From NCBI RefSeq assembly GCF_988243305.1, contig NZ_OZ547136.1: 64,000 nucleotides of DNA; one strand, written 5' to 3'. This document shows positions 52,155 through 61,273 of the stretch, piece after piece. The notes under the pieces are model-generated. The model was given only the letters and a program-made list of their open reading frames with translations, was not told the DNA's origin and ran no database searches. How positions within the stretch are numbered: position 1 is the stretch's first letter; the number at the start of each line of letters is the position of its first letter. The position numbers and the translations under genes were made by a program.

Positions 52155-53285
52155 TCAAATGACCAGTTTTTTCCATTCCTTACCGCGTGCGTCGTTGTAA
52201 ATATCGGTCATTTTTTGATTCGAATGGCCTAGCAAAATTTTGGTATCAACCCCCTGCTCTCTGAACAATCGCTCTGATAAAGATCTCTGCTCATGGAAAG
52301 AGGGAGGGGTGCCATTAGCACGCCAGTTGTAATCCACAGAATCCCGGGCTTTTTTAAATGCAACGGTTAATGTTGCTGGCTTAACCATCCCGCCGCGCTT
52401 AGCTGTCCCTTTCGCGTGATGGTGGTGCAATAGCCACGGACTAAGAACGCAATCGCGGCAGGATGACACCACATCATCCAGGGTGAGATTTAATTTATCG
52501 CAACGCAGAGCCAGAGGGATGGCAATCCGGGTTCCTGTTTTTTGCTGTTCGACATGAAGATAACCATCCCGGATATCCGAAAATTGCATTTTGCAAATAT
52601 CTGAAAGGCGCTGGCCTGTCATCAGTGCCAGCAGCATACCGCGCTGTAAAAAGTAACCATCCTTTTCCGCTGCGTTATAAATCATCATCCACTCATCAAA
52701 AGTCAGTCGCTGTCTTGATATCCGCACCTGCGGTTTTTTTGCCGATTCTGCAGGGTTAAAGCCTGGCGGGACATCGCCCGTTTGCTGAGCTTCCCGGAAA
52801 ACATCGATCAGTACTTTCCTGAAAATTTGTCCCATTCTGTTATGTCCTCTGGCCTTGTACTCTTCCAGTACTGATACCACATCTTTTACGGTTATGGCAT
52901 CTAACGGTCTGGTGCCAAAACGTTCATCAAATACCCTGAGAGGGGCCGCTTTCTGTTTCAGCGTGTTGAGTTTGATCTCGCCGTTTTCATATCTTTCCTG
53001 TTGAATTTTTCTGTAATTATTCAGAAAAATGGTAACGGTTGATGAACCGCCGGTATCACTAATAATTTTCTCCTGCAGACTGAGCATTTGTTCCATTTGC
53101 TGCCGGGCAAGACGGCTGTTCGCTTCTGCTGCAATAGTTTCTGCCAGTTTCTGGTCAATACTGCCGAGACCGTGATTTTTGCCTGTTATGGGATGCCTGT
53201 AACGCCAGTAAACTTTGTTATTTCTTTTGTCAAAATACGGAGATAATCCCGGAACATCGGTTTTATATTTTCGCGGGCGCGCCAT
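52155..53285 (-). CDS. int: phage tyrosine integrase (lambda Int family)
   Basis: 376-aa ORF; C-terminal catalytic region with LGHSNQKMTDIYNDARG (Tyr nucleophile context); 3' end overlaps the hairpin adjacent to ompW. Confidence 0.9.
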   Translation of the reverse strand: MARPRKYKTDVPGLSPYFDKRNNKVYWRYRHPITGKNHGLGSIDQKLAETIAAEANSRLARQQMEQMLSLQEKIISDTGGSSTVTIFLNNYRKIQQERYENGEIKLNTLKQKAAPLRVFDERFGTRPLDAITVKDVVSVLEEYKARGHNRMGQIFRKVLIDVFREAQQTGDVPPGFNPAESAKKPQVRISRQRLTFDEWMMIYNAAEKDGYFLQRGMLLALMTGQRLSDICKMQFSDIRDGYLHVEQQKTGTRIAIPLALRCDKLNLTLDDVVSSCRDCVLSPWLLHHHHAKGTAKRGGMVKPATLTVAFKKARDSVDYNWRANGTPPSFHEQRSLSERLFREQGVDTKILLGHSNQKMTDIYNDARGKEWKKLVI

Positions 53286-53575: not shown

Positions 53576-56050
53576 TTAAAAATCAGCCTGATTCGGGATC
53601 AGTTTTTGCCAGATAGTTGAAACGTATTTTGCCTGGTAACGGGCATCATCCAGCGCATTGTGGCGCTCACCTTCGAATGGAATAGCCGCCCTGGCATCGA
53701 AGTCCATGGCTTTTCCCAGCTCAACGATTGTGCGTACATCGCGATCGTTGTAGTAACGCCACGGGCAGGGGATCCCCTGCCGTTCGTATGAACGGCGCAA
53801 AATCGTGTTGTCGAAGTTGGCTCCATTTCCCCAGACCTGAACAAAAAATTCGCCGGAGTTTTCGTCGATAAATTCCCGCAATTGCAGCAGTGCATCATCT
53901 AACGGGATTTCATCGGTCAGAATGGCAGATTGCGCCTCCCGTGATTGCTTAAGCCACCATTTAATGGTGCCACGATCAATGACTCCGCCAGCAGTATCCA
54001 TATCGATGGTCTTACTAAATTCCGGCCCCATATCTCCGGTTTGCGGATCGAAAAATATTGCACCTATTGAGATAAGCGGGGCATCGGGATTTTTTCCCAT
54101 GGTTTCAAGGTCGATCATCATGTGGTGCCACATTCTGCTGGTGGATGTGATTTCTTGATGACCGTTCACCTTAATTGAGTGATCTGCCGTCTCGCCAGTT
54201 TCATTATCGCTATCGTGATGCTGATTGCCGCCAGTGTTCTCCTTGTGTGGATGTTCAGCGCCTTCCATTTCCTCTGGATCATCTTCCTGAACTTCAGGCT
54301 GATACTCTTCATCGAATGTTTCCTGGTATGTTGCGTCGCCCATTACCGCGCCACAATCAGGGCAGTTGCCGCCGCCGGTCTGACCGCAGGCGGTGCAGAC
54401 TTTTTCCACTTCCTGTTGCGCCACTGATTCAGGCTGTTTCGTTTCTGGCTCGTTTTGTAACGCATTTGGGCTGTTTTGTTCCGCTTTCTGGTCGTTCTGT
54501 TCCGTTTCTTGCTGGTTCTGGTTCACAGAATCGCGGGTCTGGTTCCCCTTAACCCATTTCGGATCATTCGGGTCGCTAATCCCTTCAACAAATTCACCAC
54601 GTGATACTGCAAGCAGTTCATCGGCGTCAGGCTGGCTGATATTGGCTGCCTGCATAATTTTGTTTACTTCGTCAGCGGTAACTTTTACTGGCTCTGGTTG
54701 TGCGGTCGTGTCAGATGCACCAGTATTTTGTTGTGAACCTGAGTATGTACCGTTTTTACGTGCGAAGTATTCCTCTTTTGTGATTTCCGTAGCTCCCAGG
54801 GCCAGTGCTTTTTCCAGACCAGAAAGTTTGTTTGCGCGACCGTATTTTTCGCCGTCCTTATCGGTGAAAAGGAAGTAGAACGGTCCCTCACGCTCTACAG
54901 ATGGTTCGTCTTCCACTTCGCATTCGGTTTTTTCGTTGTCCGGCATTGCCGTTTCCACTGCATCAGTTTCTGGTACTGGTGACGGGAGAGTACCAGCTGT
55001 GCCCTGATTTGTTCCTTCGTCATCTTCAAACACGCCCTTGGTAGTCAGGTATTCAGTGATGTATTTGTTCAGTGCTACGGGATCTTTGTGAATGTCGATC
55101 GGACGCTCACGGACAAGGCCAAAAATAGTCTGACGGTCGTAGCGAACGGCATCGGGTTGTTTGCGCATTGATGCGGAAATGCGCTTCCAGTCTTCGCGAT
55201 CTTTGTCGATAACTTCATTTTTTGCCCAGCGATGGATGCTGCCGTCAATGTTTCCGGTATCAATATCGCCAGGCCAGAGAGCGTAGGCCAGTTCTTCATC
55301 CAGCGTTTTCCATGTCTGCTTGTATTCGCGACAAATGGCGGCAGTGACTGGGTTGATTTTTCCTGCTGAGTTTTCAGTGTTCTGTTGATTGACTCTGGCG
55401 CGGGCGAGATCAACAACAGACGTGTATTTTCCGGTTTCCTTGCGTTCACCTTCGCGACGTTTTTTCCAGATGCGCATCTCTGCCTGAATTTCGGGCCATT
55501 TGGCACCAGGCTTACATTTATGCTTAACCCACCCGATGGCATGCAGCTTAAGCTCCGGATACATGGCGTTAACTTCTGGCATTTTCATCAACGCTTCAAC
55601 GATATGTCCGTCGAATGTTGCCATGTCTTCCTGCAACAATTCCTGTGCGCTAATAACCATATCAACGGTGATGTTTTCACATGTGTCGAACTTAACCATG
55701 ACAGCGTTCTGTACTTCAGGGGCCAGCTTGTCAAAAGTGACGTTCATCGGATCGGATTCAGTCTCAACCGGGACAAAGGAAGCAGACTCCTCATCCCAGC
55801 GGTTTTCCTGCATATATTCAGCATCCCAGGAATCGAGGGCAGGGCGGGGTATACCGGGTTTATCCTCGCAGACAAGAAATTTATAAGCGCAGTCCTGAGC
55901 AGCCGGATAATGCTCCAGGAATTGCCAGTGAAATTTTGCGCGGGCGCGACGTTCATCACCGGCTTCAATGGCAGTGGCTACAGCGACGGCACCTTCTTCC
56001 TTTATTGCCTGTTCGTCCGGAATGGCGGCGCAAATAAAGACTTTACTCAT
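53576..56050 (-). CDS. large prophage exonuclease: RecE/exonuclease VIII-like positional homolog with C-terminal DnaQ-like (DEDDh) 3'-5' exonuclease motifs and an internal CxxC-x8-CxxC zinc ribbon
   Basis: 824-aa ORF; C-terminal motifs MIDLETMG (Exo I), WGNGANFD (Exo II), HNALDDARYQA (Exo III); Cys pair CTACGQTGGGNCPDCG; acidic low-complexity linker; positioned between dicB and xis like lambdoid exo genes. Confidence 0.7.
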   Translation of the reverse strand: MSKVFICAAIPDEQAIKEEGAVAVATAIEAGDERRARAKFHWQFLEHYPAAQDCAYKFLVCEDKPGIPRPALDSWDAEYMQENRWDEESASFVPVETESDPMNVTFDKLAPEVQNAVMVKFDTCENITVDMVISAQELLQEDMATFDGHIVEALMKMPEVNAMYPELKLHAIGWVKHKCKPGAKWPEIQAEMRIWKKRREGERKETGKYTSVVDLARARVNQQNTENSAGKINPVTAAICREYKQTWKTLDEELAYALWPGDIDTGNIDGSIHRWAKNEVIDKDREDWKRISASMRKQPDAVRYDRQTIFGLVRERPIDIHKDPVALNKYITEYLTTKGVFEDDEGTNQGTAGTLPSPVPETDAVETAMPDNEKTECEVEDEPSVEREGPFYFLFTDKDGEKYGRANKLSGLEKALALGATEITKEEYFARKNGTYSGSQQNTGASDTTAQPEPVKVTADEVNKIMQAANISQPDADELLAVSRGEFVEGISDPNDPKWVKGNQTRDSVNQNQQETEQNDQKAEQNSPNALQNEPETKQPESVAQQEVEKVCTACGQTGGGNCPDCGAVMGDATYQETFDEEYQPEVQEDDPEEMEGAEHPHKENTGGNQHHDSDNETGETADHSIKVNGHQEITSTSRMWHHMMIDLETMGKNPDAPLISIGAIFFDPQTGDMGPEFSKTIDMDTAGGVIDRGTIKWWLKQSREAQSAILTDEIPLDDALLQLREFIDENSGEFFVQVWGNGANFDNTILRRSYERQGIPCPWRYYNDRDVRTIVELGKAMDFDARAAIPFEGERHNALDDARYQAKYVSTIWQKLIPNQADF

Positions 56051-56585: not shown

Positions 56586-56638
56586 GGGCGGCAGAGCAGT
56601 CACGGAGTAAAACTGATACCGCCAAACGTCACCAGAAA
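56586..56638 (-). ncRNA. dicF: DicF small regulatory RNA (ftsZ-targeting)
   Basis: Reverse complement reads TTTCTGGTGACGTTTGGCGGTATCAGTTTTACTCCGTGACTGCTCTGCCGCCC followed by a T-run; matches the 53-nt DicF sequence as recalled, with its 3' terminator hairpin. Confidence 0.75.
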
Positions 56639-57935: not shown

Positions 57936-58610
57936 TCAGTCTAAGTATTGATGTATTTGTGAAACTTTACCTTTAATGGTGTAACCACCATTAAGTTCGA
58001 TGGGTTTGTAAAGCGGATTCAGTGACAACAGATAGATGTTTGGTCCGTCAATCGCAACTTTTTTTAGTGTTACGTTTGGCGTTCCTTCCAATTGGATTAA
58101 GATTATTTTTCCCACCAGTTCTCTAATGTTACTTGAGCATGGTGTGATCAGCACGGTAGATCCGTCGGGGATGGTTGGGAGGCCGTTAGAGTTTGTCATC
58201 GCATCTCCCTCAACATGCAATAAAAAAGAGTTTTCAGCGGTTTTTGTCATGACATCAACCCAATTCTTAATACCAGGAATCTCGGTTACTGGACAACTCA
58301 TATCCCAATAACCAGCCTGTTCCCACGTTAAAACGGGCAACCGGGCGATGTTGTCACTAATGTAAGGGTACTGATTCAGACGCAGATCATCGGCTTTATC
58401 GTGACCGTCCTTTCCATAAAGAATCCATTCAGGAGATTTGGAAAGCAATTTTGACAGTAGATACAAATTCTCACCGTCAGGTTTTGAAGAGCCATTTTCC
58501 CATTTTGTTACGGATACACGAGATATGCCGATTGCTTTCGCAACCTGCTGTTGGGTTAATCCAACGTCTTTTCGACGATTCCGAATACGTTCGCTGATAG
58601 TGTTTTTCAT
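57936..58610 (-). CDS. prophage CI-like repressor (XRE HTH N-terminal domain plus S24/LexA-like autopeptidase C-terminal domain)
   Basis: Track ORF 57936-58709; start placed at ATG 58610 (MKNTISERIRNRRKDVGLTQQQVAKAIGISRVSVTKWENG...) by close resemblance to the P22 C2 N-terminus; C-terminal Ser/Lys dyad context (GDAM...KK). Confidence 0.85.
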   Translation of the reverse strand: MKNTISERIRNRRKDVGLTQQQVAKAIGISRVSVTKWENGSSKPDGENLYLLSKLLSKSPEWILYGKDGHDKADDLRLNQYPYISDNIARLPVLTWEQAGYWDMSCPVTEIPGIKNWVDVMTKTAENSFLLHVEGDAMTNSNGLPTIPDGSTVLITPCSSNIRELVGKIILIQLEGTPNVTLKKVAIDGPNIYLLSLNPLYKPIELNGGYTIKGKVSQIHQYLD

Positions 58611-58624
58611 GTAACCAATGTTAC
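58611..58624. promoter_or_regulatory. candidate right operator site (PRM-proximal)
   Basis: Palindrome GTAACCAATGTTAC immediately upstream of the repressor start. Confidence 0.55.
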
Positions 58625-58658
58625 TACCAAGTGATGTTGCTATGGTTGACATTGTTAT

Positions 58659-58672
58659 GTAACTATTGTTAC
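58659..58672. promoter_or_regulatory. candidate right operator site (PR-proximal)
   Basis: Palindrome GTAACTATTGTTAC adjacent to a TTGACA hexamer (58646-58651) upstream of the cro-like gene. Confidence 0.55.
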
Positions 58673-58701
58673 CCTTCTGCTCGAAATAACAGGAGAGTTT
58701 T

Positions 58702-58917
58702 ATGTTCAAAGATGATGTTCTGCGCTATTTCAAAAAAAAGCGACTAGTAGCTGAGGCTCTTGGAATTTCACATGTGGCTGTTGTGCGGTGGAAAGCAGTT
58801 ATTCCCAAACTTCGCGCAATGGAACTGGATGAAATTACTAACGGTGAATTGAAATACAACCCAGAACTTTACAAGAAGCAGGATAGCACCTCAAACGAAG
58901 GAAAGAATGATTCATGA
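58702..58917 (+). CDS. Cro-like/YdaS-family HTH DNA-binding protein
   Basis: 71-aa ORF with SD AGGAGAG; HTH segment LVAEALGISHVAVVRW; divergent from the repressor gene. Confidence 0.7.
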   Translation: MFKDDVLRYFKKKRLVAEALGISHVAVVRWKAVIPKLRAMELDEITNGELKYNPELYKKQDSTSNEGKNDS

Positions 58918-59339
58918 AAATCAAGCATGAACACATCCGCATGGCGATGAATGTCTGGGCGCATCCGGACGGCGAAAAAGTGCCGGCTGCGAAAATTACC
59001 AAAGCGTATTTCGAGCTGGGAATGACGTTCCCGGAACTGTATGACGACAGCCATCCGGAAGCCCTGGCCCGTAATACCCAGAAAATTTTCCGTTGGCTGG
59101 ATAAAGACACCCCTGATGCTGTTGAAAAAATGCAGGCTCTGTTACCGGCGATCGAAAAGGCGATGCCGCCTTTGCTGGTGGCCCGTATGCGCAGCCACAG
59201 TTCTGAATATTACCGTGAGATCGTCGAACGGAGGGATCGGCTGGTGAAGGATGTCGATGATTTTGTTGCGTCAGCGGTTGTTTTGTATGACCAGATGAAT
59301 CGCGGCGGCCCGGCAGGGAATGCTGTGGTGATGCACTAA
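58914..59339 (+). CDS. CII-like/YdaT-family prophage regulator
   Basis: 141-aa ORF overlapping the cro-like stop; size and position match the YdaT family that follows ydaS in Rac-type prophages. Confidence 0.55.
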   Translation: MKIKHEHIRMAMNVWAHPDGEKVPAAKITKAYFELGMTFPELYDDSHPEALARNTQKIFRWLDKDTPDAVEKMQALLPAIEKAMPPLLVARMRSHSSEYYREIVERRDRLVKDVDDFVASAVVLYDQMNRGGPAGNAVVMH

Positions 59340-59361: not shown

Positions 59362-60324
59362 ATGAGCAGCAAGCTTCATGGTCTTGTCTGGGAAGGGTGC
59401 GCCTTCACCGGCATGATCTTATCCAGGGTGGCGGTTATGGCCCGTCTTGCAGACTACAGCAATGACGAGGGCGTGTCATGGCCTGCCATTGAAACTATCC
59501 GGCGTCAGATCGGTGCAAGAAGTGAATCCACAGTGAAATCGGCTATTGCAGAACTGGCGAAAGAGGGCTGGCTGACGAAGGAAGAGCGTAAGGTCGGTGG
59601 GCGTAATGTAAGCAATATCTATCGGCTTAATGTGGAAAAACTCGAAGCAGCTGCGGCGGCGGCGCGTGAGTCATATAAACCGAAAAGAAAAATTAGCCCG
59701 GCAAAAAATGACCCGTTAACAGTTGACCCGTCAAATATTGACCCCTCAACGGTTGACCCGTCAAATTTTGATGGATCAACTGTTGATAAAAAACTGCCGA
59801 TTAGGGGGGCGATGATTGACCCCGATCCGTCAGTATTAAAACCTGATCCGTCAGATAAAAGATCTTCTTGTCCGGACGCTTCGCAACCGGACCCGCAGAC
59901 GGCTGAACAGGATTTTTTAACCCGACACCCTGACGCGGTTGTGTTCAGTGCGAAAAAACGCCAGTGGGGAAGTCAGGAAGATTTGGTGTGCGCACAGTGG
60001 ATCTGGGGACGAATCGTGAGTCTTTACGAGCAGGCGGCCAGCTATGATGGCGAGATCACTAGACCGAAAGAACCCAACTGGACAGCATGGGCCAATGACG
60101 TTCGCACAATGCGGATGCTGGATGGCAGAACTCACAGACAAATTTGTGAAATGTTTGGGCGTCTCCAGCGGGATTCGTTCTGGGTAAAAAACATCATGAG
60201 TCCGGCAAAACTCCGGGAAAAATGGGATGAACTGGTTATCCGCCTGGGGCGTTCGCCTGCGCAGCGTTGCGTGAATCACATTTCTGAACCGGACACTGAA
60301 ATTCCGCCGGGCTTCAGGGGGTAA
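59362..60324 (+). CDS. phage replication initiator (lambda O-like, HTH N-terminal domain) containing internal iteron-like repeats
   Basis: Track ORF from GTG 59347; ATG 59362 has a GGGGG SD; N-terminal winged-helix segment (LSRVAVMARLADYSNDEGVSWPAIETIRRQIG); central DPS-rich linker encoded by repeated TTGACCCGTCAA units. Confidence 0.6.
   Translation: MSSKLHGLVWEGCAFTGMILSRVAVMARLADYSNDEGVSWPAIETIRRQIGARSESTVKSAIAELAKEGWLTKEERKVGGRNVSNIYRLNVEKLEAAAAAARESYKPKRKISPAKNDPLTVDPSNIDPSTVDPSNFDGSTVDKKLPIRGAMIDPDPSVLKPDPSDKRSSCPDASQPDPQTAEQDFLTRHPDAVVFSAKKRQWGSQEDLVCAQWIWGRIVSLYEQAASYDGEITRPKEPNWTAWANDVRTMRMLDGRTHRQICEMFGRLQRDSFWVKNIMSPAKLREKWDELVIRLGRSPAQRCVNHISEPDTEIPPGFRG
59708..59790. repeat. iteron-like direct repeats (candidate phage replication origin) inside the replication gene
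   Basis: About five copies of a 12-15 bp unit (TTGACCCGTCAAAT and variants, each an internal dyad TTGAC/GTCAA) followed by an A-rich stretch GATAAAAAACTG. Confidence 0.6.
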
Positions 60325-60364
60325 GTGTTAATTTCTGGTCATGAGGTAATTTTCAGGAGGACTT

Positions 60365-60640
60365 GTGGCAAAAGTTTTTACACAAGAAGAGCGGGAAAAA
60401 ATTAAAGGGCTGATCGTGGAATTCGTACGCCTTAACGGACGAGGCACGATTCGGCAGTTATCGGATGAAATTGGTGTCAGTCATACGTCTGTCGGTCGTT
60501 TATGCATGGAGCTGGCCGCCAGTGGTGATGTTTACAATTCCGGTTACGGAGTATTCCCGTCTGAGCAGGCGCGCAAGGACTGGCAAAACGCCCGCAAAAA
60601 AACTCTCAAGGGCAAAGCTGAAGAAACCATCTGTGGTTGA
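60365..60640 (+). CDS. hypothetical small protein with predicted winged-helix/HTH segment
   Basis: 91-aa ORF from GTG with SD CAGGAGGAC; HTH-like GTIRQLSDEIGVSHTSVGRLCMELAASG. Confidence 0.5.
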   Translation: MAKVFTQEEREKIKGLIVEFVRLNGRGTIRQLSDEIGVSHTSVGRLCMELAASGDVYNSGYGVFPSEQARKDWQNARKKTLKGKAEETICG

Positions 60641-60788
60641 TCCGGACCTTATCTGGCTATTACCTGACGGAGAAATACGTCGCTACGACAGGCGTCAGAA
60701 CATAATCTGTCGCGAGTGCCGGAAGAGCGAAGTTATGCAGCGCGTACTGGCGTTTTATCAGGGGAATTTTCAGGAGGTAGCGCAGTGA
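60633..60788 (+). CDS. hypothetical micro-protein (51 aa), translationally coupled
   Basis: GTG at 60633 overlaps the upstream stop (GTGGTTGA); its stop overlaps the next start (GTGA); part of track ORF 60465-60788. Confidence 0.35.
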   Translation: MVDPDLIWLLPDGEIRRYDRRQNIICRECRKSEVMQRVLAFYQGNFQEVAQ

Positions 60789-61273
60789 GTGCACCGGCAA
60801 CCATTCTTGATATGTGCTGTGGCAGCCGTATGTTCTGGTTCGATAAGAATGACGACCGGGCGATATTTAGCGATATCAGAAAAGAAGAGCACACATTGTG
60901 TGATGGACGACGCCTGATTATCAGTCCTGACCTGATAGCAGATTTTCGAGCATTACCATTTGCAGACGCATCGTTTCCGGTTGTTGTATTCGACCCTCCG
61001 CATCTTGAGTGTGTTGGTGATAAAGCCTGGATGGGAAAGAAATATGGACGGTTGAATAAAGATACCTGGCGTGATGATTTGCGGCAGGGATTTAAAGAAG
61101 CTTTTCGTGTGTTGTGGCCACATGGCGTTCTGATTTTTAAATGGAATGAAACGCAAATATCTGTCCGCCAGATATTGGCACTAACCGACGCGAAACCAAT
61201 CATCAGCCAGCGCACCGGTAAGAACGATAAAACACATTGGATTATTTTTGTGAAGGAGGCGACCAGTGGGTAA
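60785..61273 (+). CDS. putative SAM-dependent (DNA) methyltransferase, orphan
   Basis: Track ORF 60716-61273; GTG at 60785 preceded by SD CAGGAGG; motif I-like ILDMCCGSRMF and motif IV-like FDPPHL; no adjacent restriction endonuclease gene. Confidence 0.5.
   Translation: MSAPATILDMCCGSRMFWFDKNDDRAIFSDIRKEEHTLCDGRRLIISPDLIADFRALPFADASFPVVVFDPPHLECVGDKAWMGKKYGRLNKDTWRDDLRQGFKEAFRVLWPHGVLIFKWNETQISVRQILALTDAKPIISQRTGKNDKTHWIIFVKEATSG

Follow-up and report, generated by a model that had tools for sequence, protein, structure and literature searches.

The right end of the 64,000-nucleotide stretch of contig NZ_OZ547136.1 (assembly GCF_988243305.1) analyzed here, referred to below as the window, is occupied by the left arm of a lambdoid prophage adjoining ompW; the right part of the prophage lies outside the window. 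The subject of this report is the replication module of the prophage, and in particular its initiator gene at 59362-60324 on the plus strand, which matches PHROG 391 ("replication initiation O-like") over its full length (E 2e-115) and has 914 homologues in Enterobacterales. An initial annotation, made from the sequence alone, had proposed a 321-aa initiator gene carrying its own repeat array and lacking an adjacent helicase loader gene; the gene lies where it was placed, but its 320 codons plus stop give a protein of 320 amino acids (aa). The rightward early operon reads Cro-like regulator, cII/YdaT-like gene, initiator, DUF977 gene and S-adenosylmethionine (SAM) methyltransferase, and contains the order cro, cII-like, initiator expected of a lambda-type module with the origin inside gene O. 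The Cro-like regulator, first gene of the operon, is found at 58702-58917 (+; Pfam P22_Cro, E 3e-16), and the cII-like/YdaT-family gene at 58914-59339 (+; Pfam YdaT_toxin, E 3e-10; PHROG 163 "CII-like transcriptional activator", E 3e-47) lies directly 5' of the initiator.

A candidate origin inside the initiator gene

The N-terminal winged-helix domain of the initiator (aa 1-100, 59362-59661, +), presumably the part that binds the repeats, matches Pfam HTH_36 only, where lambda O has Phage_rep_O, and an hhalign comparison of the family with lambda O aligned the C-terminal domain only. Remote homology of the two N-terminal domains is nevertheless possible, since HHpred assigns the N-terminus of lambda O to HTH_36 as well (PMC5509034). 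Residues 108-177 are predicted to be disordered by AlphaFold2 (AF2). They are followed by a lambda-O-type C-terminal domain (aa 185-295, 59914-60246, +), which aligns with lambda O residues 170-294 at an hhalign probability of 99.6% (E 5.9e-24) and is 35-36% identical to lambda O and phi80 gp15 in tblastn (E 1e-18). These matches strongly support the reading of the initiator as a three-part O-family protein, in which a linker, disordered by prediction and encoded by what would be the origin DNA, joins the winged-helix N-domain to an O-type C-domain.

The linker is encoded by the iteron array at 59708-59787, which consists of five 12-bp dyads with the consensus TTGA-N4-TCAA, spanning 59708-59779 at an exact spacing of 15 bp, and a half unit GTTGAT at 59782-59787 on their 3' side. 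With up to two mismatches allowed, the 12-mer TTGACCCGTCAA matches at 59708, 59723, 59738, 59753 and 59768, the last of these on the minus strand and therefore an inverted copy, and Tandem Repeats Finder reports both a period of 15 (5 copies) and a period of 30 (3 copies, 80-84% matches) over 59688-59786. Only 5 sites of the TTGACCCGTCAA type occur elsewhere in the 64 kb, and the observed total of 12 matches was reached in none of 100 shuffles (mean 5.5). The proposal of about five repeat units, each an internal dyad, is thus confirmed, and the in-phase dyads go far beyond what chance would give. Further to the right there are two accessory sites with a TGA-N4-TCA core, CCGATCCGTCAG at 59822-59833 and CTGATCCGTCAG at 59843-59854, placed 21 bp apart. 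They are of the TGATCCGTCA type, and every synonymous position in them is kept between subfamilies of approximately 57% amino acid identity.

An A-rich stretch had also been proposed to follow the repeats. An A6 run (59788-59793, read from the sequence) does border the array on its right, but the stretch is modest: it reaches 65-67.5% AT, whereas the 41 bp next to the iterons of lambda have 78%. Within the region from 58.7 to 61.3 kb, the 40-mer of lowest stability lies at 59830-59869, where the nearest-neighbour free energy is -46.9 against a mean of -55.4 (standard deviation 3.5); located rightward of the array, it is a candidate unwinding element. The same area holds four GATC sites within 88 bp (59774-59861); the average for the whole window is 4.1 per kb. 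Since two of the four belong to conserved GATCCGTCA sites, we do not take the cluster as independent evidence, although a Dam-methylation input to the origin is possible.

Because the array is translated, it has to be asked whether the repeats are nothing but a repetitive, low-complexity peptide linker, the origin lying elsewhere, a scenario that the initial annotation had itself named as a possible refutation. The array does encode a 5-aa repeat of the DPSxx kind (DPLTV/DPSNI/DPSTV/DPSNF/DGSTV) in a region that AF2 predicts to be disordered. However, when aa 116-178 are compared with homologues of 53-72% overall identity, the amino acid identity is the lowest of the protein (51-71%) and the nucleotide identity the highest (71-83%), and residues that are identical use the identical codon in 80-97% of cases, against 41-60% in both flanking domains. 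Serine is encoded by TCA in all six instances inside this segment and in 2 of 22 elsewhere in the gene (Fisher p ~7e-5, our own arithmetic). The residues at the edges of the units vary (V/I/F, N/T) yet the bases TT...A are retained, and subfamilies with D-P-S, D-A-S, D-Q-S or D-T-S all keep TGA-N4-TCA. In Edwardsiella-type relatives the dyad is found in both orientations, encoding VDPP. in one and VEGST in the other, so that an inverted dyad is retained although it specifies a different peptide. Since synonymous sites are far more conserved here than in the flanking domains, the repeats appear to be selected as DNA and not as peptide; together with the position of the array, the same as that of the lambda and P22 origins inside their initiator genes, this leaves the pure peptide linker a highly improbable explanation, and we have dropped it.

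The protein lengths in the family, 305, 310, 315 and 320 aa, differ by multiples of 5 aa. Iteron copy number varies among strains in steps of 15 nt (window 59707-59781; homologues P0003, P0015, L048 and L053), and the array, as read from these sequences, is one that gains or loses whole units.

The likeness to lambda ori inside gene O, also suggested in the initial annotation, can accordingly be upheld at several levels. The array occupies initiator codons 116-143, where lambda's four iterons occupy O codons 117-145, the C-terminal domains are homologous, the repeats are constrained as DNA, the gene order is shared, and a Ren-like gene lies downstream in both. The differences from lambda, apart from the N-domain, are the shorter and more tightly spaced repeats (dyads of 12 bp every 15 bp, where lambda has 18-bp iterons every 20-24 bp), the weak AT-rich element, the absence of a P gene and the C-terminal tail of the initiator, which is of a type IPPGFRG found in DnaT where lambda O ends in NTDWIYGVDL. 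In P22, gene 18 is likewise annotated with an origin inside the initiator gene and holds the same operon position, but the phage supplies its own DnaB-type helicase through gene 12, and the C-terminus of gp18, ...IAIREGTL, belongs to neither tail type. The reading of the locus as a lambdoid prophage origin together with its initiator is well supported by these comparisons. By analogy with lambda, N-domain dimers on the dyads would assemble into a nucleoprotein complex, which would open the adjacent DNA of low stability.

The missing loader and its optional cassette

No P-, DnaC- or DnaB-like gene was found between 60325 and 64000 in Pfam and PHROG scans, and Phage_lambda_P is absent both from the window and from a complete E. 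coli prophage (L001) that is 96% identical. In L001, which extends from integrase to portal and continues the same gene order to the Q antiterminator, lysis and head genes, no loader is annotated. The absence of an adjacent helicase loader therefore stands, and a loader further right in the prophage, which had been named as a refuting outcome, was encountered neither up to 64000 nor in the annotation of the complete relative. An O homologue and no phage helicase or loader, the definition of an initiator-only module, is what we find in the window as well as in L001.

The gene after the initiator had been described as a 91-aa helix-turn-helix (HTH) protein in place of a loader. An HTH open reading frame (ORF) of 91 aa is indeed present at 60365-60640, but it is the 5' part of a frameshifted DUF977/Ren-like gene (60365-60788, +) that continues in an overlapping 107-aa ORF at 60465-60788. 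The 91-aa ORF matches Pfam DUF977 over profile positions 1-81 of 134 (E 6.5e-15) and PHROG 142, so that the suggested profile search of this protein for a loader domain gave no loader. Intact homologues are 140-142 aa long, and comparison of the frames with an intact 142-aa homologue places the frameshift at an A7 run at about 60591-60600. The split could reflect a pseudogene, a sequencing error or slippage. DUF977 was considered as a loader in its own right and rejected: it is HTH/Ren-like, carries a frameshift in our prophage and lacks conservation beside other loader-less initiators. Since the gene in this position differs among loader-less relatives, being PerC/YfdN-like or a methyltransferase at other loci, the DUF977 protein does not appear to be a conserved partner of the initiator.

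Sibling prophages carry the same initiator (99.4% DNA identity) with a DnaC homologue starting 7 nt after its stop codon. Comparison of one of them (L027) with the window shows a clean presence/absence of 1.54 kb between the initiator stop codon and DUF977, the site being the 40-nt spacer at 60325-60364 in our prophage, and the cassette encodes a 246-aa DnaC homologue and a DUF1627 gene (L027 4130-5669; blastn and ORFs of L027). The initiator and its tail are identical or nearly so in modules of the Rac ydaU-ydaV type and the O157 type, in which initiator and DnaC-like gene go together; these modules differ from the window in having the cassette. Among 80 close relatives retrieved, the DnaC-like gene lies 7 nt 3' of the initiator in 41 and is lacking in 31. 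Of 5426 complete E. coli genomes, 1923 have the loader-less junction and 1266 the DnaC-like one.

These numbers bear on the possibility that the replication module of this prophage is simply defective, having lost the DnaC-like and DUF1627 cassette and with it autonomous replication. The retention of the cassette by siblings with a 99.4%-identical initiator would fit such a loss, as would the frameshift in the adjacent DUF977 gene and the location of the remaining prophage beyond the window. On the other hand, the loader-less junction is the commoner of the two in the complete genomes, it recurs behind unrelated initiator N-domains (L104, L112, L134), and the iterons and the initiator ORF are intact. 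The junction sequences differ between the two forms, which makes them alternative mosaic joints and not the products of a simple deletion; origin of the loader-less form by deletion of the cassette was rejected on the grounds that both the junctions and the DUF977 start differ and that the junction recurs behind other initiator types. Moreover, an initiator alone serves for replication in LLS and PhiR49_1, both viable phages (genome annotations; PMC12315714). Decay of this one element does not explain the breadth of the arrangement or the existence of viable initiator-only phages, and we regard a defective module as distinctly unlikely.

In a 2025 study (Genome Res, PMC12315714), modules with an O homologue only are reported for 34 of 314 lambdoid phages, their replication is called "not yet understood", and LLS is described as making plaques; DnaT is not mentioned in the passages of it that were searched. 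Both LLS (PQ299149) and PhiR49_1 (PV340568) are complete phage genomes with no annotated loader beside the initiator, and in LLS none is annotated anywhere. They share with our prophage the family of the initiator N-domain, the TGA-N4-TCA repeats in the linker and the tail, which reads IPEGFRG in LLS and IPAGFRG in PhiR49_1. The PhiR49_1 initiator is 57% identical to ours, the best match among deposited phage genomes, whereas LLS has another C-domain, PF09524-like by sequence inspection. As a kind of object, the locus is ordinary: a lambda-type origin inside an initiator gene, in an initiator-only configuration that has already been reported. The initial annotation had considered a minimal module or an unfamiliar partner, and the latter is not borne out, given that sibling prophages with the same initiator carry a DnaC homologue and that initiator-only modules are already documented. 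Since the same initiator precedes a DnaC homologue in so many siblings, its likely partner is a familiar DnaC-type loader.

The remaining features of the prophage arm are those of a lambdoid element. An integrase ORF (52155-53285, -) is followed by an 824-aa exonuclease (53576-56050, -), and the leftward early region contains the antisense RNA DicF (56586-56637, -; Rfam RF00039, 76.7 bits), a location that agrees with the ydfA-C/dicB neighbourhood annotated in a related prophage. The immunity region upstream of the replication module contains a cI-like repressor (57936-58709, -; Pfam HTH_3, E 4e-17; Peptidase_S24, E 1e-16), whose mechanical ORF of 257 aa with a TTG start compares with 238 aa annotated in the related prophage; the true start is probably internal. 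The same holds for the SAM methyltransferase after the DUF977 gene (60716-61273, +, a mechanical ORF), where 185 aa with a GTG start compare with 149 aa in the related prophage.

Initiator tails and the loaders that follow them

The last part of the initiator is a tail of 21 aa, AQRCVNHISEPDTEIPPGFRG (aa 300-320, 60259-60321, +), which is predicted to be disordered by AF2 and aligns with residues 159-179 of E. coli DnaT. The DnaT tail pattern R-D-V-N-x-x-S-x-P-D-x-x-I-P-P-G-F-R-G is present in the initiator as QRCVNHISEPDTEIPPGFRG, and 14 of the last 17 residues are shared with DnaT. Searches of NCBIfam and the PDB aligned residues 300-320 only: the initiator has no counterpart of the DnaT N-domain (aa 1-83), which oligomerises and works with PriB, nor of the three-helix-bundle C-domain (aa 84-153) that binds single-stranded DNA (ssDNA), its own C-domain being O-type. 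A further difference is that the initiator is predicted to find its target by DNA sequence, whereas PriA and PriB bring DnaT to forks. A protease tag and a clamp-binding motif were considered for the tail and set aside, as it has no resemblance to ssrA/LAA or QL[SD]LF. A full-text literature search for PPGFRG found no paper.

The distribution of this tail was followed by scanning IMG/VR for DNA encoding D-x-x-I-P-x-G-F-R-G-stop, which gave 118 ORFs. Clustering of the 102 that have 240 aa or more gave at least 10 N-domain and 7 C-domain groups, which are combined in 16 ways. For the tally of loaders we used the 105 tail-bearing loci with at least 1.5 kb of downstream sequence. A DnaC-like gene follows within 0-7 nt in 64 of them and no loader is found within 3.5 kb in the other 41, while a P-like or DnaB-like gene follows in none of the 105. 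At representative loader-less loci there was no ORF with a Walker-A motif on the strand of the initiator within approximately 4 kb on either side. Conversely, all of 104 P-linked initiators (79 from IMG/VR, 21 from a one-genome-per-species collection, mainly of Enterobacterales genera plus Actinobacillus, and 4 family members from the first scan) have lambda-type tails, either ..NTDWIxGVxL or HWNSPEAWENTL. Both tails are found on each of three types of C-domain (O-type, "GHDPVDVINTSIANG" and "YLQSATKW"), and the loader switches along with the tail.

In this survey, the loader varies with the tail. Where relatives have the same C-domain but a lambda-type tail in place of the DnaT-type one, a P-type loader always follows. 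The DnaT-type tail (the last ~20 residues) may couple the origin-bound initiator to DnaC-dependent loading of DnaB. The partner would be the phage DnaC homologue encoded directly 3' in the siblings, and the host DnaB-DnaC complex in our prophage; the module would thus do without a loader of its own because its initiator ends in a DnaT-type tail. In this prophage, the comparative evidence makes a host DnaC-type loader, reached via the DnaT-like tail that the initial annotation had passed over, the likely partner.

A similar way of working is known from iteron plasmids such as pSC101, R6K and RK2, in which a winged-helix initiator (RepA, pi and TrfA, respectively) acts on repeated sites and uses the host DnaB-DnaC, with no loader of its own. 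By analogy, the module described here most likely works in the same manner. It differs from the plasmids in that its sites are inside the initiator ORF, in that the element is a lambdoid prophage, and in that the initiator has no Pfam match to the tandem winged-helix type Rep_3 at E <= 0.01.

A possible DnaT-like route to the host loader

In E. coli K-12, dnaT lies directly upstream of dnaC (dnaT at L085 1479-2018), just as the tail-bearing initiators lie upstream of DnaC-like genes. Two phage initiators from IMG/VR (L091 and L166) share the whole C-terminal half of DnaT, with 63% identity over residues 86-179 (E 1e-39), which suggests that the host dnaT-dnaC operon descended from a phage initiator-loader module. 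Initiators of the DUF1376 type are 45-50% identical to this part of DnaT, and most of these DnaT-like initiators adjoin a DnaC-like gene.

According to recent papers, direct contact of DnaC with PriA, PriB or DnaT has not been demonstrated, and the mode of DnaB/DnaC recruitment is called unknown (PMC11087952, PMC13377028). In the literature consulted, residues 154-179 of DnaT are assigned only an approximately 2-fold effect on cooperative ssDNA binding (PMC4132743). The candidates for contact with the tail would be DnaC, DnaB within the DnaB6-DnaC6 complex, or PriA. Residue A84 of E. coli DnaC is altered by the dnaC1331 allele, which blocks PriA/PriB/DnaT-dependent loading (PMC11087952). It is invariant in 14 aligned phage DnaC-like loaders, all of them paired with tail-bearing initiators. 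Since the alignment is 72% identical overall, this invariance is only a weak lead.

PriA deserves separate consideration. The tail could engage the PriA/PriB preprimosome, for example a pocket of PriA near its sites for the DnaT C-domain and the C-terminal tip of SSB, instead of DnaC or DnaB. In that case a PriA-type primosome would be seeded by the initiator at the origin, with loading completed by the DnaT and DnaC of the host. The tail is after all DnaT's own, the C-domain of DnaT docks on PriA HD2/CTD (PMC13377028), and the core D-x-x-I-P-x-G-F in our reading resembles the PriA-binding SSB tip DDDIPF (PMC4129139). This route also ends in DnaC-dependent loading and therefore fits a tail accompanied by a DnaC-like gene or by no loader, but never by P. 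Against it, the DnaC homologue 0-7 nt downstream in 64 of 105 loci is the arrangement expected of direct partners like O and P, and the structure paper of 2026 is silent on the tail (PMC13377028). The residue counts in Table 2 of that paper suggest, by our own arithmetic, that the last ~20 residues of DnaT were not modelled, and these residues would for that reason be free. We consider recruitment through PriA unlikely, but still a serious alternative.

The reading that we prefer, a lambda-type origin that recruits the host DnaB-DnaC through a DnaT-type tail, is given a probability of roughly 0.55. We infer the partner of the tail from co-occurrence, and several points weigh against the reading. 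Origin activity and contact between tail and partner are predictions from sequence and co-occurrence, and the AT-rich element is much weaker than that of lambda. The surveyed loci are phylogenetically non-independent, with many near-identical prophages among them. The O-like protein DopC, in which a DnaT_C motif was noted in 2017, adjoins the P-like DopE (PMC5509034), and the preprimosome paper of 2026 favours the N-domain of DnaT, not its tail, as the recruiter of DnaB/DnaC (PMC13377028). Since its DUF977 gene is frameshifted, this particular prophage may be decaying. Finally, in an AF2 model of E. coli DnaC fused to the tail through a 40-aa Gly/Ser linker, the tail did not dock and had a predicted local distance difference test score (pLDDT) of 40-45; with 16 natural loader-tail pairs as the alignment, a monomer, no DnaB and no control, this model is weak, and we regard it as uninformative rather than negative.

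A broader proposal can be stated in the same terms. DnaT of E. coli shares a tail of ~20 residues, (R)(D/Q)(V/P)N..S.PD..IP.GFRG, with enterobacterial phage initiators of at least 16 different architectures. The tail would be a portable element through which an origin or fork, once recognised, is passed on to the DnaB-DnaC loading machinery; exchange for a lambda-type tail would re-wire the initiator to a P-type loader, the initiator-only phages would imitate DnaT, and the host dnaT-dnaC pair would be a captured phage module. We regard this proposal as tentative and somewhat less likely than not.

The tail provides a specific and testable handle on two questions that have been called open, namely how initiator-only phages replicate and how DnaT recruits DnaB/DnaC. 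The relatives described above amount to a natural swap, in which the initiator keeps its domains while its final 15-20 residues are exchanged along with the loader gene, and a short peptide would be relevant to phage replication and host replication restart alike. About one third of complete E. coli genomes contain the loader-less junction, which makes this a question about a very common class of prophages. The common initiator-only phages may borrow the DnaB-DnaC loading machinery of their host, and the tail suggests how they could do so.

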